From: a virus
Taxonomy: Duplodnaviria > Caudoviricetes
Virus record (IMG/VR): IMGVR_UViG_3300025701_000035
Span: 1 to 32,508 of that record
DNA: 32,508 nucleotides
Strand: one strand, 5' to 3'
Below are positions 1 through 29,542 of this stretch, in pieces; the stretch's first letter is position 1; the number at the start of each line of letters is the position of its first letter. Position numbers and translations under genes: made by a program. The notes below the pieces were generated by a model that was not told the origin of the DNA, searched no databases, and saw only the letters and a program-made list of their open reading frames with translations.

Positions 1-894
1 GTTTCCTTTATCACCTTTAGGCCCTTGAATACCTTGAATACCTTGGTTACCATTAACACCTGAAGTACCACTACTCCCGTTAGCACCATTGTTTCCTTTA
101 TCACCTTTAGGTCCTTGAATACCTTGGTTACCTATAGGTCCAATATTACCATTAACCCCAGAGGTACCGTTATCACCTTTAGGTCCTTGAATACCCTGAT
201 TACCATTGTTTCCATTTCTCCCAGAAGTACCACTACTTCCATTAGCACCATTGTTTCCATTGTTACCATTCCTTCCAGAAGTACCATTATCACCCTTAGG
301 TCCTTGAGGTCCTTCAAAACCACCCCTACCAGCACTACCAGAAGTACCATCGGATATATACCTAGTCGCTATTTTACCAGTACTTGAGTTATATACTAAG
401 TATTGTGGTAAATTATTATCGTTTGTTAAACCAGTAAGATTAACGTTACCAGTAATAGCGGCATTACCAGTCACACGTAAGCTAGTACCATCGAAAGTCA
501 AATTTTGTTCACCATTCACGGACGAAGCACTACCAGTGGCTGTAACTATTCTATTATCGGCATTATTACTTATTCTTATGGTTTCAACAGAACCAGAACT
601 ACCTTTATATTCGATAGCGTTTTTACTACTGTTAAAGTATACCGAACCAACCCTAGCGTTTGTAGGTATTGATGCTACTACTGGAACCGTAAGTTCAGAC
701 CTAACATCTACCTTACCTTTGGCTACCGACATCAATAATTGATCATCATCATCGTAAAAACCTAAAGTACCATCTTTGCTATACTTTAACTCAATATTAT
801 TTGTTGTACTACCTGAAGTGTACGAAAAGTTAAGGGTACCTGATTCGGGTACTATCTTTACCGTATTACCTGCTTTGCTTACTAAATTTCCCAT
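1..894 (-). CDS. Collagen-like (G-X-Y) tail fibre/structural protein, N-terminal part, runs off the left edge
   Basis: Not in the ORF track because there is no stop in the window. ATG at 894 reads MGNLVSKAGNTVKIVPESG...NNADNRIVTATGSASSVNGEQNLTFDGTSLRVTG...GPQGPKGDNGTSG...GIQGPKGDKGN, open to base 1; TATTTATTA motif at 908-916 upstream. Confidence 0.85.
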   Translation of the reverse strand, partial: MGNLVSKAGNTVKIVPESGTLNFSYTSGSTTNNIELKYSKDGTLGFYDDDDQLLMSVAKGKVDVRSELTVPVVASIPTNARVGSVYFNSSKNAIEYKGSSGSVETIRISNNADNRIVTATGSASSVNGEQNLTFDGTSLRVTGNAAITGNVNLTGLTNDNNLPQYLVYNSSTGKIATRYISDGTSGSAGRGGFEGPQGPKGDNGTSGRNGNNGNNGANGSSGTSGRNGNNGNQGIQGPKGDNGTSGVNGNIGPIGNQGIQGPKGDKGNNGANGSSGTSGVNGNQGIQGIQGPKGDKGN

Positions 895-925: not shown

Positions 926-3900
926 TTATTTTCTAACGTACTCTAATCTTGGATTATCAACATCCTTTCTATTTGCGTGTACTATGTAGTAAGCATTAAC
1001 ATCACCACAATCACAACCAACCTTAATTTCTTTAACTGAAACTTCTTCAACATAATGTTGACAAGAACTACCAATTGACGTAAGTTGTACTGATATAGAA
1101 TCTTCGTGTACTAAACCAGACCAATAATCTGGTAATTCTATAAGACCATTAGTAACCTTACCTCTTACATACACACCATTTTCTGGGCCTTCCAGAACAG
1201 CGTATTGTAATCTGTGTTCCCCACCTTTAGTCGGGTGAACTATATCAAAGAACTTTTGGTTAGCAGTAATTATATCCAAATCAATGATACTATTAAGTCC
1301 GTTACCACTTATACCGTCAGGCTGTGCCGTAAATGGTACATCCCAACCCTTAAACTGATCACCAGTCCAAAAAACTAATTCGTCTGGATTGGATGATGCC
1401 ACATCTACCGCAATACTATCATTTAATACTATAATACCATTAGAAGCACCGACATCAATTCTTCTACTCGTATTCAAAGAACCACCACCACTTAAACCAG
1501 CACCAGCAATTACATCGACATAAGACCCGCTAGTACCTACGTTACCAGATAAACCACTAGTACCATCATTACCAGACGATCCAGCTGTACCAGAACCTCC
1601 AGATACACCAGAAGCACCACCTACACCAGCTGTACCATTCGAACCAGAAGACCCAGACGTACCAGACACTCTCGATATCCCTTTATTACCGTTATTACCT
1701 GACGTACCGTTAGAACCAGTTGAACCTGAAGACCCTGAAGCCCCACTAACTCCGTTATTACCACTATTACCAGACGTACCGTTAGTACCATTTTTACCAG
1801 ATACACCGTTATTACCATTAAGACCACTAAATCCGTTTAAACCAGTTGTTCCGTTAGTCCCATCAATACCAGATACACCGTTATTACCATTAAGACCACT
1901 AAATCCGTTTAAACCAGTTGTTCCGTTAGTTCCATCAATACCAGATACACCGTTAGCACCGTTATTACCTGATGTACCATTAGACCCCGAAGACCCAGAT
2001 GCACCACTATTTCCGCTAAACCCATTCATACCGTCCGTACCATGAGATCCAGACGAACCAGACGTACCAGACACTCTCGATATCCCTTTATTACCGTTAT
2101 TACCAGATGTACCATTAGAACCAGTTGAACCAGAGGTTCCACTTAAAGCAGAAACTCCTTTATTACCAGCCACACCATTCGTACCATTTGTACCATTAGA
2201 TCCTGAATAACCAGATAAACCACTAGCACCATTATTACCGTTAGAACCAGATGTTCCAGATGTACCAGATAACCTTGATGCACCGTTACCTCCAGTCACA
2301 CCATTCGTACCAGATGTACCAGAAGATCCAGATGAACCTGATAACCTAGACAAACCTTTATTACCGTTATTACCTGACGTACCATTAGAACCAGTTGAAC
2401 CAGAGGTTCCACTTAAAGCAGAAACTCCTTTATTACCAGCTACACCAGAAGTCCCGTTAGAACCTGATGTACCAGTTGATCCTGATAATGCTGAAGCACC
2501 GCTGTTACCAGCAACCCCGTTATTTCCATTTGTACCTGAAGAACCTGATGTTCCACTTACAGCAGACAAACCTTTATTACCGTTATTACCTGATGTACCG
2601 TTAGAACCAGTTGAACCAGAGGTTCCAGACAACCTTGATATACCGTTACCTCCAGTCACACCATTCGTACCAGACGTACCAGAAGATCCATTAGATCCCG
2701 ATAATGCTGAAGCACCACTGTTACCAGCTACACCATTATTCCCATTTGTTCCTGAAGACCCAGATGTCCCACTTACAGCAGAAACACCCTTATTACCAGC
2801 TACACCAGAGGTTCCATTAGAACCAGAAGTACCTGTTGAACCCGATAGTGCTGATGCACCACTGTTACCAGCAACCCCGTTATTTCCATTTGTACCTGAA
2901 GAACCTGATGTTCCACTTACAGCAGACAAACCTTTATTACCGTTATTACCTGATGTACCGTTAGACCCAGTTGAACCAGAGGTTCCACTTAGAGCAGAAA
3001 CTCCTTTATTACCATTATTACCATTAGTACCGTTAGAACCAGAGGTTCCAGATAAACCACTATTACCATTACCACCGTTATTCCCGTTTGTTCCTGAAGA
3101 ACCGTTTGAACCAGATAGTGCTGAAGCACCACTGTTACCAGCAATACCTGCTGTACCATTTGTACCAGAAGATCCATTAGATCCTGATAGTGCTGAAGCA
3201 CCGCTGTTACCAGCTATACCATTATTTCCGTTTGTACCCGAAGAACCAGAGGTTCCACTTAGAGCAGAAACTCCTTTATTACCAGCTACACCAGAAGTTC
3301 CGTTAGAACCAGATGTACCAGTTGAACCAGATAGTGCTGAAGCACCACTATTACCAGCTACACCATCATTTCCATTTGTACCCGAAGAACCTGATGTACC
3401 AGATAGTGCTGAAACACCTTTGATTCCATTATTACCTGACGTACCATTAGACCCAGTTGAACCAGAGGTTCCACTTAGAGCTGAAGCACCACTATTACCA
3501 GCTATACCTACTGTACCATTTGTACCTGAAGATCCGTTTGAACCCGATAGTGCTGAAGCACCGCTGTTACCAGCGACTCCATTATTCCCATTTGTCCCTG
3601 AAGATCCAGACGTCCCGCTTAAAGCGGATACACCTTTATTACCAGCTACACCAGAAGTTCCGTTTGAACCAGATGTACCAGTCGACCCTGATAGTGCTGA
3701 AGCGCCGCTGTTACCAGCAATCCCGTTATTTCCGTTTGTACCCGAAGATCCGTTTGAACCCGATAGTGCTGAAGCACCGCTGTTACCAGCGACACCAACG
3801 GTACCATTTGTACCAGAAGATCCATTAGACCCTGATAGCGCTGAAGCACCGCTGTTACCAGCTACTCCGTTATTTCCGTTTGTTCCTGAAGACCCAGAGG

Positions 3901-4552
3901 TTCCGCTTACAGCAGAAACTCCTTTATTACCAGCTACACCAGAAGTCCCATTAGAACCTGATGTACCAGTTGATCCTGATAGTGCTGAAGCACCGCTGTT
4001 ACCAGCAACTCCATTATTTCCGTTTGTACCTGATGTACCATTAGAACCAGATAATGCACTTAAACCACTATTACCAGCAATACCGTCATCACCATTTGTC
4101 CCTGAAGAACCAGATGTACCACTTAAAGCGGATACGCCACTATCACCATTTAGACCAGAAGTTCCGTTAGAACCAGAAGATCCTGAAGATCCCGAAACAC
4201 CACTCTGACCAGAAGATCCAGCTGTCCCACTAGTACCAGAAACTATTTCAGAAAACTGAAACTCACCAGTATTATTGTTGTATGAAACGAAATGTGTAGG
4301 ATTTACGTCTTCTGTTAAACTAGAAACACTAAGGGTATCTAAAGAGACATCCTTAGTGTTTTCAAATTCACTAGTCACACTATTATAAGCTAGTAAATCC
4401 CCATTTTGAGGATTTAATAGTACGATATCGTTAAGATCCCCTATACCGAGGTCTTCAATTACCGTTTTAATATTTTCGAAGTTAGTATCTAACTCTGTAT
4501 ACGAGAGCGCTCGACCTAAATCATTTCTAAGGTATATTGTTACTGTAGCCAT
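926..4552 (-). CDS. Gly/Ser/Asn-rich G-X-X repeat tail fibre-like protein (1208 aa)
   Basis: N-terminal LRxxLGRALSYTELDTNF anchor-like motif; ~900 aa of GTSGSSGTNGNNG repeats; C-terminal KFFDIVHP...LEGPENGVYVRG...IELPDYW domain, which I recognise from phage fibre C-termini. Confidence 0.85.
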   Translation of the reverse strand: MATVTIYLRNDLGRALSYTELDTNFENIKTVIEDLGIGDLNDIVLLNPQNGDLLAYNSVTSEFENTKDVSLDTLSVSSLTEDVNPTHFVSYNNNTGEFQFSEIVSGTSGTAGSSGQSGVSGSSGSSGSNGTSGLNGDSGVSALSGTSGSSGTNGDDGIAGNSGLSALSGSNGTSGTNGNNGVAGNSGASALSGSTGTSGSNGTSGVAGNKGVSAVSGTSGSSGTNGNNGVAGNSGASALSGSNGSSGTNGTVGVAGNSGASALSGSNGSSGTNGNNGIAGNSGASALSGSTGTSGSNGTSGVAGNKGVSALSGTSGSSGTNGNNGVAGNSGASALSGSNGSSGTNGTVGIAGNSGASALSGTSGSTGSNGTSGNNGIKGVSALSGTSGSSGTNGNDGVAGNSGASALSGSTGTSGSNGTSGVAGNKGVSALSGTSGSSGTNGNNGIAGNSGASALSGSNGSSGTNGTAGIAGNSGASALSGSNGSSGTNGNNGGNGNSGLSGTSGSNGTNGNNGNKGVSALSGTSGSTGSNGTSGNNGNKGLSAVSGTSGSSGTNGNNGVAGNSGASALSGSTGTSGSNGTSGVAGNKGVSAVSGTSGSSGTNGNNGVAGNSGASALSGSNGSSGTSGTNGVTGGNGISRLSGTSGSTGSNGTSGNNGNKGLSAVSGTSGSSGTNGNNGVAGNSGASALSGSTGTSGSNGTSGVAGNKGVSALSGTSGSTGSNGTSGNNGNKGLSRLSGSSGSSGTSGTNGVTGGNGASRLSGTSGTSGSNGNNGASGLSGYSGSNGTNGTNGVAGNKGVSALSGTSGSTGSNGTSGNNGNKGISRVSGTSGSSGSHGTDGMNGFSGNSGASGSSGSNGTSGNNGANGVSGIDGTNGTTGLNGFSGLNGNNGVSGIDGTNGTTGLNGFSGLNGNNGVSGKNGTNGTSGNSGNNGVSGASGSSGSTGSNGTSGNNGNKGISRVSGTSGSSGSNGTAGVGGASGVSGGSGTAGSSGNDGTSGLSGNVGTSGSYVDVIAGAGLSGGGSLNTSRRIDVGASNGIIVLNDSIAVDVASSNPDELVFWTGDQFKGWDVPFTAQPDGISGNGLNSIIDLDIITANQKFFDIVHPTKGGEHRLQYAVLEGPENGVYVRGKVTNGLIELPDYWSGLVHEDSISVQLTSIGSSCQHYVEEVSVKEIKVGCDCGDVNAYYIVHANRKDVDNPRLEYVRK
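1530..4240 (-). repeat. Coding tandem repeat region (nested repeats of 9-nt G-X-X triplets, with longer duplicated blocks)
   Basis: Recurrent blocks such as GNSGASALSG and GNKGVSALSG; near-exact 72-nt duplication around 1798-1950. Confidence 0.9.
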
Positions 4553-8767: not shown

Positions 8768-8803
8768 AAGGTTTTTTTATTAAAATACGTGTATTTATTA
8801 CAT

Positions 8804-9550
8804 ATGGATGGTATTATAAAAAGTTTTAATGTGAACGACAGTTTAGCTCAAGATATTTGGGTTAACCATGATTCCGATAATTTTAAAGAAGTTAAATTAG
8901 ATAAAGATATCAGAGATAGATTAATATCTATAACTAAAGACTTTATGGATAGTATGGGTATAGAAACTGTTGTGGTTGAAGATATCATTATAGTAGGTAG
9001 TATAGCTAATTATAACTGGTCTAAGTATTCAGATATCGACTTACACGTAGTTATAGATAAAGAAAAAGTAACAGATGACACCTTATTAGCTGATGAATTT
9101 TTTACTGCTAAAAAAGAGTTATACAACATAAAACACGATATAAGTATAAAAGAGTTTGACGTTGAGTTATACGCACAAGACATCAAGGAGACAGTAGATT
9201 CAGATGGTATATACAGTGTATTATACAACAAATGGATTAAAACTCCCACCAAAGATAAAGGTGAGGGTGTTATAGATAAAAAGGGTATAATAAAAAAAGT
9301 TAAAGATTTCGATAAAAAATTAACTAATATAATTAAAGAAACAGACCCAGAAGCTAAGATATTAAAAATAGATAAATTAAAAGCTAAGATAAGAGCCTAC
9401 AGAAAAAGTGGTTTAACCAAGGGTGGTGAGTATAGTACAGAGAACTTAGTATTCAAATATCTTAGAAGATCTAAGTACCTAGAACAGTTAAGGGATTTAG
9501 GGATAGACATTAAAGATGAGCTATTATCATTAGAAAATGAAGTATATTGA
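8804..9550 (+). CDS. Pol-beta superfamily nucleotidyltransferase
   Basis: GS...SDIDLHV catalytic signature plus a third acidic residue (DVELYAQD); ATG at 8804 directly after TATTTATTA. Confidence 0.8.
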   Translation: MDGIIKSFNVNDSLAQDIWVNHDSDNFKEVKLDKDIRDRLISITKDFMDSMGIETVVVEDIIIVGSIANYNWSKYSDIDLHVVIDKEKVTDDTLLADEFFTAKKELYNIKHDISIKEFDVELYAQDIKETVDSDGIYSVLYNKWIKTPTKDKGEGVIDKKGIIKKVKDFDKKLTNIIKETDPEAKILKIDKLKAKIRAYRKSGLTKGGEYSTENLVFKYLRRSKYLEQLRDLGIDIKDELLSLENEVY

Positions 9551-11505: not shown

Positions 11506-11779
11506 ATTTATTTATCCTAACCAGTAACTTACCATCACCTTTTATAACCCTATGCCAATCATGTCTCTTTATAGATAAAGACTTATTATTACACAATTTA
11601 ATAGGTAGTTCGTTATCAAATTGAAACATCCAACCTTCACCACAGTCAATTACCTCAACCAACCTATCCTCTTTATCTCTATGCCACATCAATTCGATAG
11701 GGTCTATATCATCCCCAAACTCTCTAATGATACAACCAGACTTTAACTCGGTATCGATATAAGGTTTACCAGTACCCAC
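11495..11779 (-). CDS. Small cupin-like phage protein
   Basis: ELMWHRDKEDR...GWMFQFDNELP...HDWHRVIKG, with His-containing cupin-like motifs. Confidence 0.75.
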   Translation of the reverse strand: MGTGKPYIDTELKSGCIIREFGDDIDPIELMWHRDKEDRLVEVIDCGEGWMFQFDNELPIKLCNNKSLSIKRHDWHRVIKGDGKLLVRINKFTT

Positions 11780-13337
11780 TAAAGTTAGATTTTAAACCTA
11801 ATAAACTTGCGTATCTAGGTAGTCTACAAGACCAGTATGATGCCTTAGTTCTATCCTTCTTATTAGCACAGTCATGTCTGGCCGCAAATGATTTCCTAGC
11901 CTTAGGGTCGTTTAGTTTAACAGAAAGACCAGTAGTATCACCAAAAGAAACTTTCTTTATACCACCATTAGGTTTCCTAACGTAAACATAGAACTTCTTA
12001 GAACCACCTCGCTTTGGTTTGTTTAATTTAACATCCCTACCTTTATATTCAGCCTCATTTACACCATCAACAATACCCAGTAAAACTTTTCTAGCTTTAG
12101 CATCCAAATCTGAAGGTTTAATTAATTTAGCTGGTATTGTCTTCATATTAGAACCCAACGCTCTTTGAGCTCTATGGTTACCATCTAAAATCCATTGAAT
12201 CTCACCAACCTCGTTAACCATAATTAATATAGGGTATTGTTCGGAAACTTCAACCTGTTCAACTCTATCCAGCTCCTCAGGGTTACCATCCCAACCTAAC
12301 ACTACATCCGCTAATTTATCCGTCGGATAATCCTTTTTAGGTATATCTTTAGTCATAACTAAAATATCCTGTAGAGTGATCTTTTCACCCTCGTCATTTT
12401 CCCAAGAAGTATCTGAACCCTGTTCAGCTAAAATAGGGAGATCTAAGGGTACTTTAAGACCATTATACTCACCAAAGGTACCTAGACTAGTATTTTCAAA
12501 AAGAAATGAATCAAAACCGTCTAAATTAAGTGATCCTCTCTCCCACATCTCTCTAGCTTCTCTAATTAAATCCATGTGCTTATAACTACCAGGTCTATAA
12601 ATATTTTCTATCAATGGTATATTGTTATCTAAATGATATGTTATACTTTCGTTTAACTCTACCATATCAGAAAGAACATCTAATTTCTCGTTAAGTCTCT
12701 CTTCAATTTTTAACTCTAAACACTCCTCACAAACGAACTCTGATTCAGAAAATAGTGATTCAAACTCTTTATTGTTGTACATATCGTTAATAACCTCAAA
12801 TACGAAAAAAAGATCTTTATACTTAGGGTTAACCTTAACACTATACATGTCATTCTTTTTTTCCATCATAGGTTCACCGAAGTTATCCTTAGCCATTGAT
12901 ATATAAAAACTAGGGTCCTCACACTCTGGTGAAATTGAGAATAATTCGGAAACAACCTCTAAATCAACATCACCGTTAGATTTAGTGAAATCCAATACAG
13001 GCAACTTACGTATACCTATTTGCATAGCCATTATAGCTCTATGTCTACCATCACTATTCCTAACATCGGTCTTATCTAGCGAATATAAAGTTAAAGGGTC
13101 TAGTTTACCACCATTACTAACATGTGCGATAAGATCATTAATATTAGACCTAGTCTCATCAGTCATCTCCAATGGTTTAGCCTTCGATAAGAACTCATCT
13201 GGTGTCATATAAACCATTTCACCACCCCTAGCTTTATAATCAGAATCACCATACCACAACCCGATATCCTCTAACGGGTATTCTTTATAAAACCCTTCGT
13301 TTAATGAATCTAATATATCTTTTTTAGTAACAATCAT
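11766..13337 (-). CDS. Modular protein: two ParB/Srx-like domains, acidic domains and a C-terminal basic Cys domain (DUF6321-like)
   Basis: YMTPDEFL...DGRHRA and YPILI...ILDGNHRA motifs; C-terminal KKFYVYV...KKVSFGD...ARKSFAARHDC...ASYWSCR; modules bounded by LNE/VSE/LAE/VNE. Confidence 0.8.
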   Translation of the reverse strand: MIVTKKDILDSLNEGFYKEYPLEDIGLWYGDSDYKARGGEMVYMTPDEFLSKAKPLEMTDETRSNINDLIAHVSNGGKLDPLTLYSLDKTDVRNSDGRHRAIMAMQIGIRKLPVLDFTKSNGDVDLEVVSELFSISPECEDPSFYISMAKDNFGEPMMEKKNDMYSVKVNPKYKDLFFVFEVINDMYNNKEFESLFSESEFVCEECLELKIEERLNEKLDVLSDMVELNESITYHLDNNIPLIENIYRPGSYKHMDLIREAREMWERGSLNLDGFDSFLFENTSLGTFGEYNGLKVPLDLPILAEQGSDTSWENDEGEKITLQDILVMTKDIPKKDYPTDKLADVVLGWDGNPEELDRVEQVEVSEQYPILIMVNEVGEIQWILDGNHRAQRALGSNMKTIPAKLIKPSDLDAKARKVLLGIVDGVNEAEYKGRDVKLNKPKRGGSKKFYVYVRKPNGGIKKVSFGDTTGLSVKLNDPKARKSFAARHDCANKKDRTKASYWSCRLPRYASLLGLKSNFSGYW

Positions 13338-13416: not shown

Positions 13417-13773
13417 ATGAAATACTTGGAAGCAGAATTGTACGAAAGTAAAGAGTGTGAATATACTTCACCCGTTTTAGTTAACCTGGATAAACTAATA
13501 TCTAGGTTAAAGTCTGACACCCCAGAATATCATATAGACATTGATACTAAAAACGTATATTCTATTAACAGAGTTAATGATTGTATAAACCACATCAAAA
13601 AAAATATTAACAAAAAAGGTTCGTTAGAACTACCATCATTAGGGTTCCAATCTAATAAGATAGGTGTTATAGATGGTAGACACAGGATAATAGCCAACAA
13701 AAAAATTGGGTATACCCACATTTATGTAGATATACCCAATTCATATAAAGATATATTATTAAATCTTAATTAA
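13417..13773 (+). CDS. ParB/Srx-like N-terminal domain protein
   Basis: LELPSL...IGVIDGRHRIIA...GYTHIYV. Confidence 0.75.
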   Translation: MKYLEAELYESKECEYTSPVLVNLDKLISRLKSDTPEYHIDIDTKNVYSINRVNDCINHIKKNINKKGSLELPSLGFQSNKIGVIDGRHRIIANKKIGYTHIYVDIPNSYKDILLNLN

Positions 13774-14395
13774 ATTTAACCATACTTTTCAATTTATCAC
13801 TACCAATACCTTCAATAGACTCTGGACTAACTTCCATAAACCAAACATCACCATTTTCATAAGCTTCTTGGTCACCAGAATCAATATCATTACTGTTATT
13901 TAAATAACTAGCCATAGCACCTAATAGTTCACCTTGATCAATATAACTCTTCCAATCGTTTATAGCGACCATATATCGACCATCCTCATCTTCATCTTCT
14001 TCTTGAGGTATATCTAAAAAGTCAGATAACTCATCATATATATCATATTTACCATCAGTGATAGCTTCATTAATAGTGTAATAATATTTACCACTAGATT
14101 TATCCATCAATAGCATCTCATCCCCATCATAACCAACACCAACAATGTCACCCTTAACGTACTCACCCTGTCTAGTACTACCACCATCATCATTCCATGG
14201 GGCGCTAGGATCTGCGTCAGCTCCAGCTGGGTAGTTATAATTATCGTACTCTTCAACCTTATCGGCTAAACTCTCGAATATGTTTTTTAACTGATCTTCA
14301 GATATCTGTTCTTTAGTATCATTTTTAGAAGACTTCTTATTTTCTAAAATACTCTTCATTTGAGATTCAGTTATTTTATAGATTTTCTTACCCAT
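13766..14395 (-). CDS. Acidic hypothetical protein, putative head internal protein
   Basis: N-terminal MGKKIYKITESQMKSILE; NYPAGADADPSAPWN; TATTTATA upstream. Confidence 0.8.
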   Translation of the reverse strand: MGKKIYKITESQMKSILENKKSSKNDTKEQISEDQLKNIFESLADKVEEYDNYNYPAGADADPSAPWNDDGGSTRQGEYVKGDIVGVGYDGDEMLLMDKSSGKYYYTINEAITDGKYDIYDELSDFLDIPQEEDEDEDGRYMVAINDWKSYIDQGELLGAMASYLNNSNDIDSGDQEAYENGDVWFMEVSPESIEGIGSDKLKSMVKFN

Positions 14396-16487: not shown

Positions 16488-17123
16488 TTATGAATTAATA
16501 ATGGTTTTCATTCTATTAATGGATTCATAAACAGCCCCAGACTCTATATCATCATAGTTCTTCATAGCCATTTCACCATCTTTTTCATCCTCCATTTGTT
16601 TAATCATTTCTTCGATCTCATCGATACCTTCACTAGCTTTATTAGAGAAGTCAGTTAGCTTATCATAAGCTCTTTTAAGCCAATCCTTTACAGAACCAAA
16701 CCAATTAGTAATCGCTCCTTCATATACCTTAGAACCGTCTATAGTAAGTTTACCCTTAACTTTACCAGCAACTTTAGACTCCTCTAAAATTTGGTTCAGT
16801 ACTTTTTTGGTATTTTCATTTACTTTAGTCAAAGCTGTATCAAACGCCTGTTTATAAGAAGTGGTAAGTCTTTCTGATTGCTGAGTAATCTCAACTAACA
16901 AACCATCTAATTCAACCTTAAGTTTTTTACCTGGATCAACCTGACCATCAAACATAGCCATAACCTCTGGTACTAATTCGCTTTTAGTAGCCTCCAATTC
17001 AGATACAGACTCTTTGTATAAAGCTAGAGCTTCATCCAATTTGATTTGTATATCCTTTAATTCGTTTATTTTATTCTTAATGGATTCCTCCATATTTGGG
17101 TTAAAAACTTCGTTAATCTCCAT
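16488..17123 (-). CDS. Coiled-coil hypothetical protein, putative head internal protein
   Basis: Helical; C-terminal VYESINRMKTIINS resembles the shared peptide; TATTTATA upstream. Confidence 0.8.
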   Translation of the reverse strand: MEINEVFNPNMEESIKNKINELKDIQIKLDEALALYKESVSELEATKSELVPEVMAMFDGQVDPGKKLKVELDGLLVEITQQSERLTTSYKQAFDTALTKVNENTKKVLNQILEESKVAGKVKGKLTIDGSKVYEGAITNWFGSVKDWLKRAYDKLTDFSNKASEGIDEIEEMIKQMEDEKDGEMAMKNYDDIESGAVYESINRMKTIINS

Positions 17124-20088: not shown

Positions 20089-22479
20089 TTATTTTCCGTC
20101 AGCTGGGTATTCAGTAACATAAGCAACCGCTTTGTTTACCGCTAATAATACACCTACACCTGTAGATAACATATATACTTGAGCAGACTCACCTTCTTGA
20201 AGGATTAGTTCAGCAGTACCATAAGGGTTACCAAATAGTTGGTTGAATCTAACTATAAATTCAGATGATCCAGTACTATCACCAGCTAAATCAGCTATAA
20301 CTATAGTACTAATAGTACCAGCAGTAGCAGCAGTAAAGTCGATGTTCCCGTTAGTTACAGCAGGCGCGTCAACGACCATTATAGCTTCAGCAGAACCAAC
20401 AACCACATATGATGCACCAGTTATATCAAGCTTATTACCGTCGAATATATATCTTGGGTTCTCAGCTAAATACTCTACGTCATCAATGTTACCTTGTAAT
20501 ACTGTATCAGCAGAAGCTCTAGCAACTAATTCAGTTGATAATGCAGCGTCGTTAGACGTTTCATAATCAGATAAGTCACCAGCAACAGCGTCGATGTTAT
20601 CTTGTAATACAACATCAGCAGAAGCTCTAACAACTAATTCAGTTGACAATGCAGCATCGTTAGACGCTTCATAATCAGATAAGTCGGTAGCAACGGCACT
20701 AATGTCATCTTTTAACACAACATCAGCAGAAGCTCTAACAACTAATTCAGTTGACAATGCAGCGTCGTTAGACGTTTCATAATCAGATAAGTCACCAGCA
20801 ACAGCGTCGATGTTATCTTGTAATACAACATCAGCAGAAGCTCTAACAACTAATTCAGTAGACAAGTTATCTTCGATAACTCCTTCAGCAGCGATAGCTC
20901 TTGCAGTTTCAACAGAAACAGCTTCACTTACTTCGATGTCTGTAGCGAAATCATTGTTAAGGTTATCTATTCTAGTCGTCAATGAAGCATCTCCAGATAT
21001 TCTTGCAGTCTCTTCAGCAGTGATATCAGTAGATAAATCGTTGTCAGCAGCAGCTCTATCCACTAATTCAGTTGATAAGTTATCAGCAATAACTCCTTCA
21101 GCAGCTAGTGCTCTTGTTTCTTCAGCGTCAATGTTACCTTGTAACACAACATCAGCAGAAGCTCTAGCAACTAATTCAGTTGATAAGTTATCTTCGATAA
21201 CACCTTCAGCAGCTAATGCTCTAGTTTCTTCAGCATCAACGTCAGCGATTCTATCAGCAACTTCAGTAGACAATGCAGCATCGTTAGATGTTTCATAATC
21301 AGATAAGTCAGAAGCGATTGAACCTTCAGCAGCGATAGCTCTAGTTTCTTCAGCATCAATGTTACCTTGTAATACAACATCGGCAGCAGCTCTATCTACT
21401 AATTCAGTCGATAAGTTATCTTCAATAACACCTTCAGCAGCTAATGCTCTAGTTTCCTCAGCATCAATATTACCTTGTAATACCGTATCAGCAGAAGCTC
21501 TAGCAACTAATTCAGTTGACAATGCAGCGTCGTTAGACGTTTCATAATCACTTAAGTCAGAAGCAATTGATCCTTCAGCGGCAATAGCTCTAGCAGTTTC
21601 AACAGAAACAGCTTCACTTACTTCGATATCCGTAGCAAAATCATTGTTAAGGTTATCTATTCTAGTTGCCAATGAAGCATCTCCAGATATTCTTGCAGTT
21701 TCTTCAGTAACAATTTTACCTTCTAACACTGTATCAGCAGAAGCTCTATCTACTAATTCAGTTGATAAGTTATCTTCGATAACTCCTTCAGCTGTTTCAG
21801 CTCTCAATTGCTCAGCATCAACATCAGCAATTCTGTCTGCAACTTCAGTTGATAATGCAGCATCGTTAGATGTTTCATAATCAGCTAAATCAGAAGCGAT
21901 TGAACCTTCAGCAGCGATAGCTCTAGTTTCTTCAGCATCAACGTCAGCTTCTCTATCAGAAATTTCCTGAGTTAAGTCACCAGCAACACCATCGATGTTG
22001 TTTTGTAATTGAGTATCAGCAGAAGCTCTATCAGCAACCTCAGTTGATAATGCAGCATCATTAGACGCTTCATAATCACTTAAGTCAGTAGAAACACCAT
22101 CAATGTTACCTTGTAACGTTGAGTCAGCAGCAGCTCTATCTACTAATTCAGTAGACAAGTTATCTTCGATAACTCCTTCAGCAGCGATAGCTCTTGCAGT
22201 TTCAACAGAAACAGCCTCACTTAATTCGATGTCTGTAGCGAAATCAGCACTAAAATTGTCTAATCTAGTATCTAATGAAGCCTCAGCAGCATCACTAGTA
22301 GTTTTATTGTCAGTAATTACTGTCTCTAAAGATGCATCTACCGACGCACTAAGAGCTTCTTCAGCACTTACTCTTGTTTCCAAAGATGTGTTCAAGTCTT
22401 CTAAGAACTCGAAGTTACCATCTAATTGGGTGAAACTTAACGCTTGTGTTAAGTTCTTTCTTAAATTTAAATTTGCCAT
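20089..22479 (-). CDS. Acidic coiled-coil repeat fibre-like protein (796 aa)
   Basis: N-terminal LRKNLTQALSFTQLDGNF; repeats EETRA(I/L)AAEG, DLSDYETSNDAALSTE, RASADxVLQGNID; beta-rich C-terminal domain. Confidence 0.85.
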   Translation of the reverse strand: MANLNLRKNLTQALSFTQLDGNFEFLEDLNTSLETRVSAEEALSASVDASLETVITDNKTTSDAAEASLDTRLDNFSADFATDIELSEAVSVETARAIAAEGVIEDNLSTELVDRAAADSTLQGNIDGVSTDLSDYEASNDAALSTEVADRASADTQLQNNIDGVAGDLTQEISDREADVDAEETRAIAAEGSIASDLADYETSNDAALSTEVADRIADVDAEQLRAETAEGVIEDNLSTELVDRASADTVLEGKIVTEETARISGDASLATRIDNLNNDFATDIEVSEAVSVETARAIAAEGSIASDLSDYETSNDAALSTELVARASADTVLQGNIDAEETRALAAEGVIEDNLSTELVDRAAADVVLQGNIDAEETRAIAAEGSIASDLSDYETSNDAALSTEVADRIADVDAEETRALAAEGVIEDNLSTELVARASADVVLQGNIDAEETRALAAEGVIADNLSTELVDRAAADNDLSTDITAEETARISGDASLTTRIDNLNNDFATDIEVSEAVSVETARAIAAEGVIEDNLSTELVVRASADVVLQDNIDAVAGDLSDYETSNDAALSTELVVRASADVVLKDDISAVATDLSDYEASNDAALSTELVVRASADVVLQDNIDAVAGDLSDYETSNDAALSTELVARASADTVLQGNIDDVEYLAENPRYIFDGNKLDITGASYVVVGSAEAIMVVDAPAVTNGNIDFTAATAGTISTIVIADLAGDSTGSSEFIVRFNQLFGNPYGTAELILQEGESAQVYMLSTGVGVLLAVNKAVAYVTEYPADGK

Positions 22480-23201: not shown

Positions 23202-24479
23202 ATGAAAAAGCTAGTAATTAACGAAGAGATCGTTAGAATGAGACAAATGATGGGTATTAACGAGAATACTATTAAAGAAGATAATGTAGGTGAAGAAACT
23301 GTTAGTGAAGACATGTCTTCATTGGAGGACGTTATCGTACATCTAATGAATACACATAACATGGATTATGATGAAGCTAGTGTTTTTAGTAAAGAATTTG
23401 AGGATAATTTACCTGTAACACATAAGGATGTTGAAGATTTCTTCACTGACTTAAGTAACTCTGATTCACCAGAAGTACCTGGTTTTGAGGGTACTATGGA
23501 TAAATTAAATGACCTTAGTATATTTAATGAAGAGGAAACGGAAGATCCAGTAAACGAGATAGGGATGTTTCATGATGCTAGAATGGGATCCGACGATTAC
23601 TTAACCCCAAAAGAAACTGAATCACCAAGACAATGCTCATTAACTGGTGAAGGTATGGACGCAGGTTGGGTTCACGAAGATAGAGACAAATATTTTAAAT
23701 ACGAAAAGGATGTTGTTGATTACATAAAAGGGTTAATGACTTATAACAGAGAAAGTATCAAAGATTTAACTGATGACGAAATTCTAGAGATAGGTTATAA
23801 CAAATATAATGTATACTATACAGAATGGGAAGAAGATGATGTATCTGAAAATGATGAGGTAAAAAAGAAATTTAAAGACGAGTACGGAAAAAAGAAAGGT
23901 GAGGCGATATACTACGCTACCGCTAACAAACAAGATAGAGACCCAGAAACTTTCGAGAAAAATGAATCCTTTGATCCATTAGATGCTTATGAAGAAGGTG
24001 AATCTGATTGTTGTGGTGCCCCAATTTTTATGGGTGATATATGTTCAGATTGTTATGAACATTGTAGTGTGGCGGAATTGGATGAAGAGTCAGCTATAGG
24101 TGGATGGGATTTAGCTATGGAAGCCATGGATACACTAGAAAGTGAAATTAAAGAAGAAGAACAATCATGGTTAGCTATGAGAAGTGGTAAAGAAGGTAAG
24201 GTTTATGAGAATAGAACTTATGAAGGTAGAGCTTACGCACAAGAAACCTATTTTGAAACTCAGTCTGGTGCATTAGAGTCAGCAGAAGAATACGCACTTA
24301 ATAGAGGTTATGAGGCTAATATGGCTAGCTTCTACCCAGAACATATTAAATATGGGCAAACTGTAAGTTACAGTGTAGAACTAAGTAAAAATGGTAAACC
24401 AGTAAAAAACAAAATGTTACAGATATCACTTTATAGAATGGATTCTGGTAAATATGAATTAACGAACTACATCAACTAA
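23202..24479 (+). CDS. Modular acidic protein with Zn-finger module, putative head cargo polyprotein
   Basis: N-terminal INEEIVRMRQMMG; modules KKKFKDEYGKKKGEAIYYATANK, SDCCGAP...CSDCYEHC and a C-terminal YRMDSGKYEL domain, separated by xxE sites. Confidence 0.8.
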   Translation: MKKLVINEEIVRMRQMMGINENTIKEDNVGEETVSEDMSSLEDVIVHLMNTHNMDYDEASVFSKEFEDNLPVTHKDVEDFFTDLSNSDSPEVPGFEGTMDKLNDLSIFNEEETEDPVNEIGMFHDARMGSDDYLTPKETESPRQCSLTGEGMDAGWVHEDRDKYFKYEKDVVDYIKGLMTYNRESIKDLTDDEILEIGYNKYNVYYTEWEEDDVSENDEVKKKFKDEYGKKKGEAIYYATANKQDRDPETFEKNESFDPLDAYEEGESDCCGAPIFMGDICSDCYEHCSVAELDEESAIGGWDLAMEAMDTLESEIKEEEQSWLAMRSGKEGKVYENRTYEGRAYAQETYFETQSGALESAEEYALNRGYEANMASFYPEHIKYGQTVSYSVELSKNGKPVKNKMLQISLYRMDSGKYELTNYIN

Positions 24480-24488
24480 TTTAACTTC

Positions 24489-25046
24489 ATGAAAAAAGAT
24501 TTACTAACAGAAGAGATTTCTAAAATAAAAGATATGATGGGTATCTCAGAAGAGATGGGTACACCACAATCACAAAACCCTACAGGGGCCGCTAAGAAAA
24601 AATGGGATTCTGGTGTGGCTAGATCTGGTCCAGGTAACCCAGTGGTAGATAATAATAGTTCGTATAGTATTAGAACAAATCATGGTAAAGGTAACCCTAT
24701 AGAATTAGGTGAAGCTGATGATAAAGAAGATTCTTTAGAAGAGTTTTCGGAGAATAGAATGTCTGGTGCCAAAAAAATAGCAGATAACGCAAAAGAAAAG
24801 GGTGGTTCATCAATATTAACATACCACCACTTCGACGTTAAGTTACCTTACTATGATAAAGCAGCAAAAGGAGAATTCAACGTAGAGGAGGCAACTAAAG
24901 AGTATGACGAACTATTAACCAAGTTAATGTCATCGTCAGAAGGTGAAATAACCATAGACGAGATAGAATTCCAGGAATTAGTTGGTAAAATAGAGGTATT
25001 AGGCGAGTTAATTAGAAAAGAATCTAAATTAACTCAAAAGAAATAG
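24489..25046 (+). CDS. Hypothetical protein with LTEEISKIKDMMG peptide
   Basis: ATG ORF with the shared N-terminal peptide; overlaps the convergent ORF by 23 nt. Confidence 0.8.
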   Translation: MKKDLLTEEISKIKDMMGISEEMGTPQSQNPTGAAKKKWDSGVARSGPGNPVVDNNSSYSIRTNHGKGNPIELGEADDKEDSLEEFSENRMSGAKKIADNAKEKGGSSILTYHHFDVKLPYYDKAAKGEFNVEEATKEYDELLTKLMSSSEGEITIDEIEFQELVGKIEVLGELIRKESKLTQKK

Positions 25047-25795: not shown

Positions 25796-27070
25796 TTAAT
25801 TTTTAAACAAACCCTTAAAAGAGTGTAATTTTTCTAATGAATTAGTTTTATATATAAATTCTTCAAGTACTTCAGACAATTCATCTAAAGTTAATTGTAA
25901 GTCATCTAATTCCTCAACGATACTCTCTAACATCTTAAGTTTATCAGAAAGATTTCTGAAATCGAAAGCGTCAACCACATCATAATAATACTGAAATTTC
26001 TTATACGTTTTACTGTATTCGTATCTCATATCATCATGGTAATTATTAAAAGTACCTTTGTTGTCGTATATATCCATTAGAGTACTGTTAAGCACTATAT
26101 TTTTATATTTACCTATAGAACTTATAGCTTCATCCCTAACTCTAGTAGCGTCAACTATAAATTCGTCTATCTTATCATCAGAATAACCAACAACCGATGC
26201 TTCAGAAATAGAAACAGGGTTATCTTTAAAAGAAGATGGGGTTATCCAGGATTCCTTTTTAAAGAACTTTATTAATATAGCTGCTATTAAACCTCCTGGT
26301 AAAATAGATATTGCCGCTAAACCAGATAATTTTAGAAGGTCCTTAAGTTGCGTACCTATCTCTTTTAAATCCTCATCACTAAGTCTTTGAGTACCAGAAG
26401 CGGCTTTAATTAACTTAGTTATAGCTTCTAAAGTTTCAACACCTTCCTGCTTTAAGTTATCCTTTATTATACCAAGTTTAGATTTAAGTTTAGATATATA
26501 ACCCCTTAAATTAGAATCCTCCATCACATACTCCTCAGAGATAGCTTTAGCCTCTAACTCGTTTATCTGGAATATTTTATCGGATGGTTGGTTTATCATC
26601 TCAACTTCTTTAGCCATATAAACAGGTGTTTCGTCATTTTTATATACAAAAGAATCGTATTTATAAGGGTTATATGTTATAACCTTAGAACCAGTTGATT
26701 GTGGTATGTCGTCAGAAGGATGTTCCTTATAATCCACTAAAGTACCAATAACAAATGCGTGAACATTTTTTCTCTTTTCATCCCTAACCTTATCCTTTCC
26801 ACCCTGTCTAACTCTGAACTCAACGTCTTTAAGTTTAACGTAATCAGAATAAGACTTAACCAGTCCTTTATAAGTTACAGAAAAAACGTGTTTGTGTAGG
26901 TTATAATAAACCATCACCTTTTTACCAATAAGTTCATCATCAGAAACTTCACTAGAATCATCAGATGTGTCATCCTCAGTATCAGCGAACATATCTAATT
27001 GATTCTCTGTTAAACCCATCATCTCATGGATTCTATATAACTCTTCGTTTAAACTATTCTTATTAACCAT
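25796..27070 (-). CDS. Modular protein: shared peptide, conserved phage domain, LETM1-like segment and helical domain
   Basis: ATG 27070 MVNKNSLNEELYRIHEMMG; VYYNLHK...KRKNVHAFV...YNPYK domain; QLKDLLK...AISILPGG...PSSF segment. Confidence 0.8.
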   Translation of the reverse strand: MVNKNSLNEELYRIHEMMGLTENQLDMFADTEDDTSDDSSEVSDDELIGKKVMVYYNLHKHVFSVTYKGLVKSYSDYVKLKDVEFRVRQGGKDKVRDEKRKNVHAFVIGTLVDYKEHPSDDIPQSTGSKVITYNPYKYDSFVYKNDETPVYMAKEVEMINQPSDKIFQINELEAKAISEEYVMEDSNLRGYISKLKSKLGIIKDNLKQEGVETLEAITKLIKAASGTQRLSDEDLKEIGTQLKDLLKLSGLAAISILPGGLIAAILIKFFKKESWITPSSFKDNPVSISEASVVGYSDDKIDEFIVDATRVRDEAISSIGKYKNIVLNSTLMDIYDNKGTFNNYHDDMRYEYSKTYKKFQYYYDVVDAFDFRNLSDKLKMLESIVEELDDLQLTLDELSEVLEEFIYKTNSLEKLHSFKGLFKN

Positions 27071-27071
27071 A

Positions 27072-27581
27072 TTATATTCTTTCAATATTAATTCTATCTA
27101 AAATAAAGATACCATTATCACCCGAAAACACTATTTCCTCTGGTGAAACAGATACGCTACCACCTTCATGGTAATCTAAATCACTAAAAATAGATTCATG
27201 GTTATTAGATAACCAATCAACCAATCTATCCTCATAACCATCACCTAAATTAACACTCACTATCACACCTTTATCTAGGTTGGCGAAGGTTAAATCAGTA
27301 CTGGTTTTAGACTCAACTTCAGCTAATTGTTTCAAGTTACCCACTAACATATCATAATCATCCATGGTTAAAACACCATTCTTTGATCCAGATATCGCTT
27401 TTTCAGCCAAATCATGTAAATCCATATCAGTCTTAGCATCTTCCTTAGCGTACTCGAGGGTACGTATAAATAAAGGTACATCCATAGTCACCGTATCAAT
27501 CTCATCTTTAGTATTAGGTGTAGAAATACCCATCATATTACGAATATTTTCTATTTCTTCATTTAATAAACCATTAACCAT
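27072..27581 (-). CDS. Hypothetical protein with LNEEIENIRNMMG peptide
   Basis: DTVTMDVPLFIRTLEYAKEDAKTDMDLH domain followed by LAE and a second module. Confidence 0.8.
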   Translation of the reverse strand: MVNGLLNEEIENIRNMMGISTPNTKDEIDTVTMDVPLFIRTLEYAKEDAKTDMDLHDLAEKAISGSKNGVLTMDDYDMLVGNLKQLAEVESKTSTDLTFANLDKGVIVSVNLGDGYEDRLVDWLSNNHESIFSDLDYHEGGSVSVSPEEIVFSGDNGIFILDRINIERI

Positions 27582-27594
27582 ACTTATATTTTAA

Positions 27595-27652
27595 TATAAA
27601 TATATATAATTAAAGCAATATTTAATTTAACCGAATAAAACCACTATTTATA
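27595..27652. promoter_or_regulatory. Divergent TATTTATA putative late promoters
   Basis: Minus copy at 27595-27602 (27581 gene); plus copy at 27645-27652 (27665 gene). Confidence 0.65.
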
Positions 27653-27664
27653 ATAAAAAACTGA

Positions 27665-29542
27665 ATGAATAACCCGTTTAACGTACTAGATAGCAAGTAT
27701 CCAGACATAAGATTTGAACTATACACAAAAGAAAAGGATAAGAGTGTTTATCTGACTGGGTTTATAGTACCACAATCAATGAGAAATCAAGGTGTGGGTT
27801 CCGACTTTATGAATGACCTAATAAAGATAGCTGATGGTGACGGATGGAAGATAACACTAACACCATCATCCAGTTACGGAGGTAATGTGAATAGGTTAAA
27901 GAAATTCTATAAAGACTTTGGTTTTGTTGAAAATAAAGGTCAAAATAGAGACTTTACACACAAAGAAGATATGTACAGAGAACCTAAAAATATGGGTACA
28001 GAAGAAACAATAACCGAAAAGGTTGTGGGTGACAAAATAGAATGTAATAAATGTGATTGGAGCTGGGATATTAAAGACGGTGGTGATGACTTATATGTTT
28101 GTCATAAATGCGGTAACGACAATACACCAAAACTTAATGAAAATGTTAATAGGTTAAAACAAATAATCACGTTAACTGAAGAAAAGAAACCAAAAGCTGA
28201 TAGATGCCTTAGGATAGCTAGAAGAAAATATGATAAACCCTCAGCATATAGGTCTGGAGCTATTGTAAGATGTAGAAACGGTAAGATATGGAAAGATCTA
28301 AAAGAAGATGACATAAATGAGGCACCAGAGGATATAAAGGAACTACTATACCAGGCACACGAAGCTATAACAAGCGTGGAAGGTGAAGATTACGCACCAA
28401 ATATCCATGAACTAGAAGGTTGGGTTAAAAATCATATAAATGAGTACAATACATTTACAGGTGAAGAGGTAGCACAACACATCAAAGACATAACACCAGA
28501 AGAAAGTGATATACCAGACCACTTCATAGATGAGTTCATTATACCTAACGACGGATGGGTTCTAAAACAAATAAATCTTAAAGAATTATTAAACGATAAA
28601 GATTTTAAAGAATATTACGATTCAGGCGATGAAAGATACGAAGACGAGGAAGTTAATGCCGATGATTTATACAACGATTTAGTGGTATATAATGGTGAAC
28701 TATTAGACGGTTACTCTAGAGCAGCAAAAATGATACGCTCTGGTGAAAAAGTGGCTGGCGCATTCGTATTAGAACCAGAAGATATAAACGAAGCCAAAAA
28801 AACTGATTATTCAAAAGAGAAAAAAGACGGACTACACGGATGGTTCTCCAGAAGAGGTGGTGGTGGTAACAAAGGTTGGGTAGACTGTAATACATGTAGA
28901 ACAGTAAACGGTAAAAAGAAATGTAAGGCCTGTGGTAGAGAAAAAGGTGAGAAAAGATCTAAATACCCATCCTGTAGACCAACACCAGGATCATGCGGAA
29001 CACCTGGTAAAGGTAAAAAATGGGGTAAGACTAAAAAGAATGAATCTATTACCGAAAACATTAATGAAGAAGATATGGAAAAGAAAAGAATAGCATTATT
29101 ATTCATAGTGATAGATAATAAAGTATTATTATTTAAAAGAAGTCCAGAGGAAACAACAAACGCTGGTAAATACGGAATGCTTGGTGGTCATATAGAAAAA
29201 GGTGAAACCCCAGAAGAAGCTTTAGTTAGAGAGGTTAAAGAAGAAGCTGGTGTAGAAATCGAACCAGAATCATTTAAAAAACTAAAAACATACGAAATGG
29301 ATAATGTACAGTTAAATGTTTTCCACACAAATGAATTCGATGTAGAGAATATAGAACTGGATAAAAAAGAACACGTAAGTAAAAAATTCTTTACCTTAGA
29401 AGAGCTGGATGAAATGTCACCAGAAGAATGTATAGAAACTAACAAGGAAATAGCTAGAGACTATAACGAAAAAGCGACTAAGAGTAACGAACTAAATGAG
29501 GACATCCAAAGAGTCAAGGAATGGTTTAAAATACTAAACTAA
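27665..29542 (+). CDS. Multidomain protein: GNAT acetyltransferase, Zn ribbon, basic module, ParB-like, basic Cys module, NUDIX hydrolase
   Basis: RNQGVGS...FYKDFGF (GNAT); CNKC...CHKC; LLDGYSRA; GLHGWF...GWVDC...CGR...YPSCRP; GGHIEKGETPEEALVREVKEEAG (NUDIX box). Confidence 0.85.
   Translation: MNNPFNVLDSKYPDIRFELYTKEKDKSVYLTGFIVPQSMRNQGVGSDFMNDLIKIADGDGWKITLTPSSSYGGNVNRLKKFYKDFGFVENKGQNRDFTHKEDMYREPKNMGTEETITEKVVGDKIECNKCDWSWDIKDGGDDLYVCHKCGNDNTPKLNENVNRLKQIITLTEEKKPKADRCLRIARRKYDKPSAYRSGAIVRCRNGKIWKDLKEDDINEAPEDIKELLYQAHEAITSVEGEDYAPNIHELEGWVKNHINEYNTFTGEEVAQHIKDITPEESDIPDHFIDEFIIPNDGWVLKQINLKELLNDKDFKEYYDSGDERYEDEEVNADDLYNDLVVYNGELLDGYSRAAKMIRSGEKVAGAFVLEPEDINEAKKTDYSKEKKDGLHGWFSRRGGGGNKGWVDCNTCRTVNGKKKCKACGREKGEKRSKYPSCRPTPGSCGTPGKGKKWGKTKKNESITENINEEDMEKKRIALLFIVIDNKVLLFKRSPEETTNAGKYGMLGGHIEKGETPEEALVREVKEEAGVEIEPESFKKLKTYEMDNVQLNVFHTNEFDVENIELDKKEHVSKKFFTLEELDEMSPEECIETNKEIARDYNEKATKSNELNEDIQRVKEWFKILN

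Follow-up and report, generated by a model that had tools for sequence, protein, structure and literature searches.

The window analyzed here is a whole viral contig of 32.5 kb (32,508 nucleotides; 11% complete). Close to its end, one open reading frame encodes a protein of 625 aa in which seven mutually unrelated modules are strung in a single chain. The reading frame and its modules are real, and were delimited as follows:

27645..27651 (+), TATTTAT element upstream of the ORF start, candidate late promoter judged from sequence
27665..29542 (+), multi-module ORF of 625 aa, from the ORF list and its translation
27665..28018 (+), GNAT-like module, aa 1-118, with ITE at its end (weak Pfam match; RNQGVG motif)
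28019..28141 (+), CxxC-CxxC zinc-ribbon-like module, aa 119-159, with LNE at its end (sequence)
28181..28321 (+), basic module 1, aa 173-219, ending in LKE..INE (pI 9.9; weak DUF5872 match)
28322..28444 (+), small acidic module, aa 220-260, with INE at its end (alignments of relatives)
28445..28792 (+), ParB/sulfiredoxin-like module, aa 261-376 (DGYSR), with INE at its end (predicted structure)
28793..29056 (+), basic Cys-rich module 2, aa 377-464, with ITE at its end (pI 10)
29069..29500 (+), NUDIX hydrolase, aa 469-612, preceded by ITE-N-INE and with LNE at its end (Pfam; Nudix box)

Only three modules are enzyme-like, the NUDIX module firmly and the GNAT-like and ParB-like modules weakly. 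The NUDIX domain named in a preliminary description of this DNA was borne out by a Pfam match above the cut-off (aa 475-584; E 1.4e-17) and by an intact Nudix box (GX5EX7REUXEEXGU), while no NCBIfam subfamily cut-off was reached. The CxxC...CxxC module of that description is likewise present in the sequence, and it occupies several different positions among relatives. For the proposed GNAT, the acetyl-CoA motif RNQGVG is intact and close stand-alone relatives exist, but the Pfam match (aa 28-89) remained below the cut-off (E 0.002). The proposed ParB-like domain was predicted as a fold with a pLDDT of 88 (aa 261-371), and its top structural matches were ParB, sulfiredoxin and related proteins; the scores were weak, however (Foldseek E 0.017, no match at E of 0.001 or below and none in Pfam; VIA match with Z 6.6, rmsd 2.8 and 69 aligned residues). 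The remaining four are small modules without annotation, and two of them have a pI near 10. Basic module 1 matched DUF5872 weakly (aa 180-204) and was also found in the cultured Immutovirus; the small acidic module (aa 220-260) matched no family; basic module 2 matched no family and yielded a poor model (pLDDT 60) with no useful fold match. Comparison with the Atlas for fold or family returned unnamed viral clusters only, and no peptidase domain was matched in the 625-aa protein.

It had been suggested that nearly every domain boundary carries (I/L)xE. This broad motif was observed 16 times against 9.3 in shuffled sequences (p 0.015), and the narrower (I/L)(N/T)E nine times against 1.15 (p 0.001, the lowest value that 1000 shuffles allow), i.e., a ratio of about 8. 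All nine narrow sites lie outside the module cores, and at least one is present in each of the seven gaps that separate or follow modules (p 2.7e-5 relative to the outside-core share of glutamate; this and the preceding p-values are flattered by core limits set after the motif and the BLAST ends had been seen, and by the post hoc choice of the narrow motif). In contrast, six of the 16 broad sites fall within cores, as do two V-x-E sites inside folded cores. The suggestion thus holds better for the narrow form than for the broad one, and the form that proves informative is hydrophobic-(N/T/S)-E. In likely early genes of a complete 299-kb relative, (I/L)xE exceeded shuffles 1.2-1.3 fold and (I/L)NE 1.6-1.7 fold. 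The sites are encoded by varying codons, and the joins are not marked by any family of DNA repeats, which rules out a DNA-level recombination repeat and places the join signal at the protein level.

Relatives of the 625-aa protein were found in fifteen viral loci, across which the modules are reordered, dropped or isolated: the GNAT has a gene of its own in L003, L004, L006-L011 and L015, and L013 and L014 have stand-alone basic modules. A query with aa 115-465 matched 1187 proteins, of which 120 were listed; after removal of one near-identical copy, the remaining 119 were reduced to 69 relatives. A larger set of 171 relatives resulted after the 150 best of 1436 distant matches had been added. 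The relatives are non-independent samples. In the motif-blind BLAST alignments of the 69 relatives, among the matches listed, starts accumulated at aa 157 (10), 172 (8), 257 (5) and 372 (18) and ends at aa 260 (7), 368 (8) and 457 (7); alignment ends thus cluster at module joins. Instead of the fixed domain order that would speak against a shuffled payload, at least 17 module orders were counted in the 69 relatives among the matches listed and at least 23 in the 171, the best 150 of 1436 distant matches included, next to the stand-alone modules. One arrangement dominates, however: basic module 1 preceded basic module 2 in 111 of the 171 relatives among the matches listed.

The motif follows the modules through this shuffling. 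In the 69 relatives, among the matches listed, [ILMV][NTS]E occurred six times in 12,626 core residues, and it lay at most 20 aa upstream of the NUDIX module in 21 of 21 cases (shuffled 1.8) and of the ParB-like module in 10 of 12 (shuffled 1.9). After the helical module, no enrichment of the narrow motif was found in the same matches (3/36 against 2.5). Among the matches listed for the 171 relatives, the ParB-like module started 1-3 residues past a hydrophobic-x-E in 17 of 18 cases, with nine different tripeptides, and only two of four internal GNATs had an upstream site. The motif is kept at module starts regardless of the module that precedes. An enrichment at linkers over domains, as the preliminary description had anticipated, was thus seen in the protein itself and in its relatives.

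Two relatives, P0072 and P0160, contain an internal leader remnant (MEITKGELEEE), which suggests that such genes may grow by fusing whole tagged genes. Pfam searches of 24 hand-picked relatives returned ART-PolyVal in six (four above the cut-off), ArdC-N in one and SAM lyase in one. Both basic modules occur, with 72% identity and with hydrophobic-x-E sites between them, in the cultured Flavobacterium phage immuto, so that the cargo idea developed below is testable now; in immuto_2-6A, the two are encoded by gene 187, whose sites are ILSE, LKE and LQE. A second multi-module protein is encoded in the window at 11766-13337 (-), with two ParB-like parts and a basic C-terminal module; it holds seven [ILMV][NTS]E against 2.0 expected, is preceded by TATTTAT and is without the LNEEI tag, and its modules occur in the cultured phages Immutovirus, Melnitz and HTVC008M. 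The nucleotidyltransferase-like gene at 8789-9550 (+), 52% identical to that of the 299-kb relative, appears by eye to be fused to basic modules in P0102.

A tag of 13 residues, LNE-E(I/L)xR(I/M)KxMM, is found twice in the 625-aa protein and in five other genes of the window:

28133..28180 (+), internal tag LNE-NVNRLKQIIT-LTE, aa 157-172, between two predicted cut sites (29.7 bits; 13-residue spacing)
29492..29539 (+), C-terminal tag LNE-DIQRVKEWFKILN (11.4 bits; alignment)
23202..24479 (+), gene with N-terminal tag INEEIVRMRQMMGINE (tag profile)
24489..25046 (+), gene with N-terminal tag LTEEISKIKDMMGISE (tag profile)
25796..27070 (-), gene with N-terminal tag LNEELYRIHEMMGLTE and a Phage_L5_gp82 module (tag profile; Pfam)
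27072..27581 (-), gene with N-terminal tag LNEEIENIRNMMG (tag profile)
16488..17123 (-), gene with C-terminal tag VYESINRMKTIINS (tag profile)

The stretch from LNE to LTE and the terminal peptide, which had been listed as separate items, are both present, but they are really two copies of this one shared tag. The tag profile was built from 24 peptides, solely from relatives of the 625-aa protein. At 12 bits or more, it matched six proteins out of 35 in the window and eight out of 377 in the 299-kb relative (shuffled null 0.2); the tagged genes of the relative at this threshold lie in its late-gene half, outside the small-gene arm at 186-258 kb. Over 144 loci, 35 distinct tags were collected (18 N-terminal, 12 C-terminal and 5 internal), some of which were training members of the profile and a few low scorers of which may be chance. 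Of the 23 non-terminal tags, 19 are followed by a second hydrophobic-x-E (shuffled 10.6), which in 12 lies at exactly 13 residues. Since the tag is usually bracketed by two sites, cutting would excise it wherever it is located. Such sites also sit before modules that do not start with the tag helix.

The helix half of the tag was compared with the C-termini of the clade's scaffold proteins. For 54 of 61 scaffolds, the best match was among the final 16 residues, and 57 of 61 C-termini scored above the 95th percentile of other C-termini, with only 13 above the 99th; the likeness of the tag to the scaffold's C-terminal helix is suggestive only. An Immutovirus peptide that looked tag-like by eye had a profile score of -0.7 and was not counted as the same tag. 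The gene at 13766-14395 (-) starts with a leader of a different type (KIYKITESQMKSILE), which is shared with several late genes of the relative and is possibly a second tag family.

No match to head genes, the protease included, was found within the 32.5-kb contig. The complete 299-kb relative has matches to Portal_T4, Peptidase_S77 (gp21) and the Gp23 capsid as well as a T4-type scaffold gene, and the window genes match its 139-183 kb region in the same order, just past the capsid gene, with identities of 63% for ClpB, 73% for gene 9613, 75% for dNMP kinase and 64% for UvrD. As the contig itself is without head genes, the link to the protease runs via this syntenic relative; the gp21-like protease expected elsewhere in the genome was found there, and not in the 11%-complete contig. 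Named phages are distant, with a capsid identity of 33-34% at best. Among the side features of the region, the window genes at 926-4552 and 1-894 (-) are collagen-like, Gly/Ser/Asn-rich fibre genes, and their counterpart in the relative encodes 5316 aa and adjoins the capsid gene.

T4 gp21 cleaves after L/I-X-E (PMC9026906). Of 72 distinct capsid sequences of the clade, 67 have INE|A at the predicted propeptide end, four have LNE|S and one has LNE|A, so that (I/L)NE is present in 72 of 72. T4 gp23 is shortened by 65 residues (from 521 to 456 aa) in the same region, and in the KVP40 record the mature capsid protein is annotated as starting after LNE62. L/I-X-E thus lies at the expected processing points, and the same tripeptide motif is present at the joins and at the clade's predicted capsid cut site. 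In 64 scaffold proteins of the clade, the narrow motif was counted 364 times, with 196 expected. In 51 clade proteases, His94 and Ser159, which we take to be the catalytic residues, are invariant. The proteases (L024:9623-10339 and related) carry INE/LNE sites at their N-termini, and their C-termini are also tag-helix-like, with 29 of 49 above the 95th percentile. The window gene at 20089-22479 (-) encodes an acidic repeat protein of 796 aa with many STE/AEE repeats, in which (I/L)xE occurs 3 times against 11 expected; this depletion might reflect avoidance of the protease.

The position just after the relative's capsid gene and an upstream element common to head and tail genes place the 625-aa protein in a late or virion gene context. 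TATTTAT also precedes the protease, tail tube, sheath and scaffold genes of the relative, and it stands before 62 of 62 scaffold genes. It was considered as a tag-specific element since it precedes 7 of 8 tagged against 44 of 369 other genes genome-wide, but within late-region loci the counts were 9/21 and 386/846; it marks the late region and not tagged genes as such. An RNA run, with eight contigs at 99% identity, three of them within the gene, was set aside as expression evidence owing to possible DNA carry-over. A reverse-strand bS21 gene lies upstream in 26 of 80 related capsid loci, a context described for predicted Bacteroidetes phages (PMC9723584, in its available text). The bS21 gene of the 299-kb relative itself is located far from the head genes, at about 291 kb (G001 C1 291049-291288; L034:9049-9288). 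In one arm of this relative, 59 of 153 genes are preceded by TAnnTTTG, presumably the Bacteroidota -7 promoter. The bS21 context and this promoter together make a host among the Bacteroidota likely.

We favor the reading that the 625-aa protein is head cargo whose modules are freed by the gp21-type protease at the (I/L)(N/T)E joins, which is somewhat better than an even proposition from the sequence comparisons. The protein would be synthesized late in infection, and its short helical tag would draw it into the prohead by binding the head core or shell, as the similar C-terminal helix of the scaffold may. There, the protease would cut after the glutamate of each join, excising the tag and freeing pieces of about 13.7, 4.7, 5.6, 4.7, 13.4, 9.7 and 16.8 kDa. 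The basic pieces would likely remain associated with the DNA. Entry into the next host is possible for the enzyme pieces (GNAT, ParB-like and NUDIX); this last step is the weakest of the mechanism. Such genes likely grow via in-frame fusion of whole tagged genes, with selection keeping the cut site. The parts of the proposal differ in strength. Packaging of the protein in the head is likely, and, given packaging, cleavage at most joins can be expected with good confidence. Action of the enzyme pieces in the next host is put at slightly less than an even chance; an effector role has indirect support in the ART-PolyVal, ArdC-N and SAM lyase matches among the hand-picked relatives, and the four small unannotated modules may instead serve as filler of the core or as counter-ions to DNA. 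The general form, in which a position-free tag copying the scaffold helix loads any fused gene and the protease frees injected effectors, is offered tentatively and is rather doubtful as a whole.

Packaging through the tag might also be followed by trimming of the tags only, leaving a largely whole, uncut polyvalent protein whose internal sites are leftovers of fusion. The internal leader remnants in P0072 and P0160 are in keeping with such an origin, and so are known cases: Alt is trimmed by T4 gp21 at ITE-6 and LTE-619, its two ends only (PMC5694885), and in SPN3US, according to the available text, 42 of 53 head proteins are uncut and cleavages remove propeptides (PMC10052503). However, most joins keep the tripeptide without a leader, and their varied middle residues and codons fit selection for cutting, so that this alternative is considered unlikely. 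A role as prohead core or filler like T4 gp67/gp68 is quite unlikely. Here, the protein would be cut, its acidic pieces would exit and its basic pieces would neutralize DNA, with no role in the next host. The four small unannotated modules, the two pI values near 10 and the resemblance of the tag to the scaffold end would suit this, as would the cleavage of T4 core proteins into many fragments (PMC9958956). On the other hand, a filler explains neither the intact Nudix box and GNAT motif, nor the avoidance of cores by the sites, which spares the domains, nor the anti-restriction-type domains in the relatives' strings. N-x-x-E helix caps are common. A protein that is never packaged and acts in the infected cell, with (I/L)NE as helix cap or composition of acidic linkers, as the mild (I/L)NE excess in likely early genes might indicate, and with a tag that binds another partner, is very unlikely given the about eightfold (I/L)(N/T)E excess in the 625-aa protein, the same tripeptide at every clade capsid propeptide end, the sites before modules lacking the tag helix and the late-half location of the relative's tagged genes.

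Searches of openly accessible main texts yielded no report of this 13-residue tag, of shuffled polyproteins cut by a gp21-type protease (examples of which may figure in the architecture files of PMC5512222) or of virion proteomics for Immutovirus or bS21 phages. If the cargo reading is true, the prohead protease of a tailed phage would not only trim propeptides but process a genuine polyprotein, and the cargo system in its general form would be a natural, evolvable cassette for the delivery of multiple payloads. With tag and site as a simple criterion, likely injected proteins can be picked from the many unannotated genes of this abundant and uncultured group of phages. How proteins are targeted to the T4 core has been called unexplained (PMC9958956), and the scaffold-like tag is a testable lead on it.

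Among known systems, the internal proteins of T4 (IPI, IPII, IPIII and Alt; PMC9026906, PMC5694885, PMC9958956) are similar in that the clade has a T4-type portal, capsid and S77 protease, that a short peptide is common to unrelated proteins and that cuts are predicted after L/I-X-E. As far as the available texts go, however, the T4 signal is an N-terminal 10-mer on single-domain proteins, whereas here a different 13-mer, in most cases flanked by a site on either side, occurs at N-terminal, internal or C-terminal positions, and the cargo consists of many modules that are shuffled within one chain and separated by sites. In four neighboring window genes and in many relatives the tag is N-terminal; in the 625-aa protein the tags start at aa 157 and 610, and because it lacks an N-terminal signal, the protein was not filed under T4 capsid-targeted cargo. 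phiKZ gp175 and SPN3US gp245 share a Glu-specific prohead protease acting on internal head proteins with several sites, but there the cuts clear long propeptides, the phages belong to another group and the SPN3US motif is A-X-E (PMC10052503, available text). The bS21 freshwater Bacteroidetes phages (Chen et al. 2022; PMC9723584, available text) resemble the clade in genome size and in the bS21 context of the capsid loci, and differ in that the closest complete relative has bS21 at 291 kb and the window has neither bS21 nor head genes.

Polyvalent proteins (Iyer et al. 2017; PMC5512222) likewise combine unrelated activities per chain, mosaic order and a late-gene context, and the 625-aa protein, with disparate domains in one mosaic chain, shares this feature. 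The GNAT and ParB-like modules here and ART-PolyVal and ArdC-N in relatives are activities of that kind; in the 625-aa protein itself, the hub domains MPTase, ArdC-N, ART-PolyVal, DdrB-ParB and MuF had no Pfam match. The available part of PMC5512222 proposes injection of polyvalent proteins and itself draws the polyprotein analogy, with 'prohead protease' occurring there only within a reference title, and that of PMC7824862 mentions polyvalent proteins without a head-protease release mechanism. In the systems of PMC5512222, embedded zincin-like peptidases are proposed to effect release, whereas here the head protease would act in trans on a defined motif, which would explain how one class of polyvalent proteins is released. 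The cargo reading thus brings together capsid targeting as known from T4 and the concept of polyvalent proteins.
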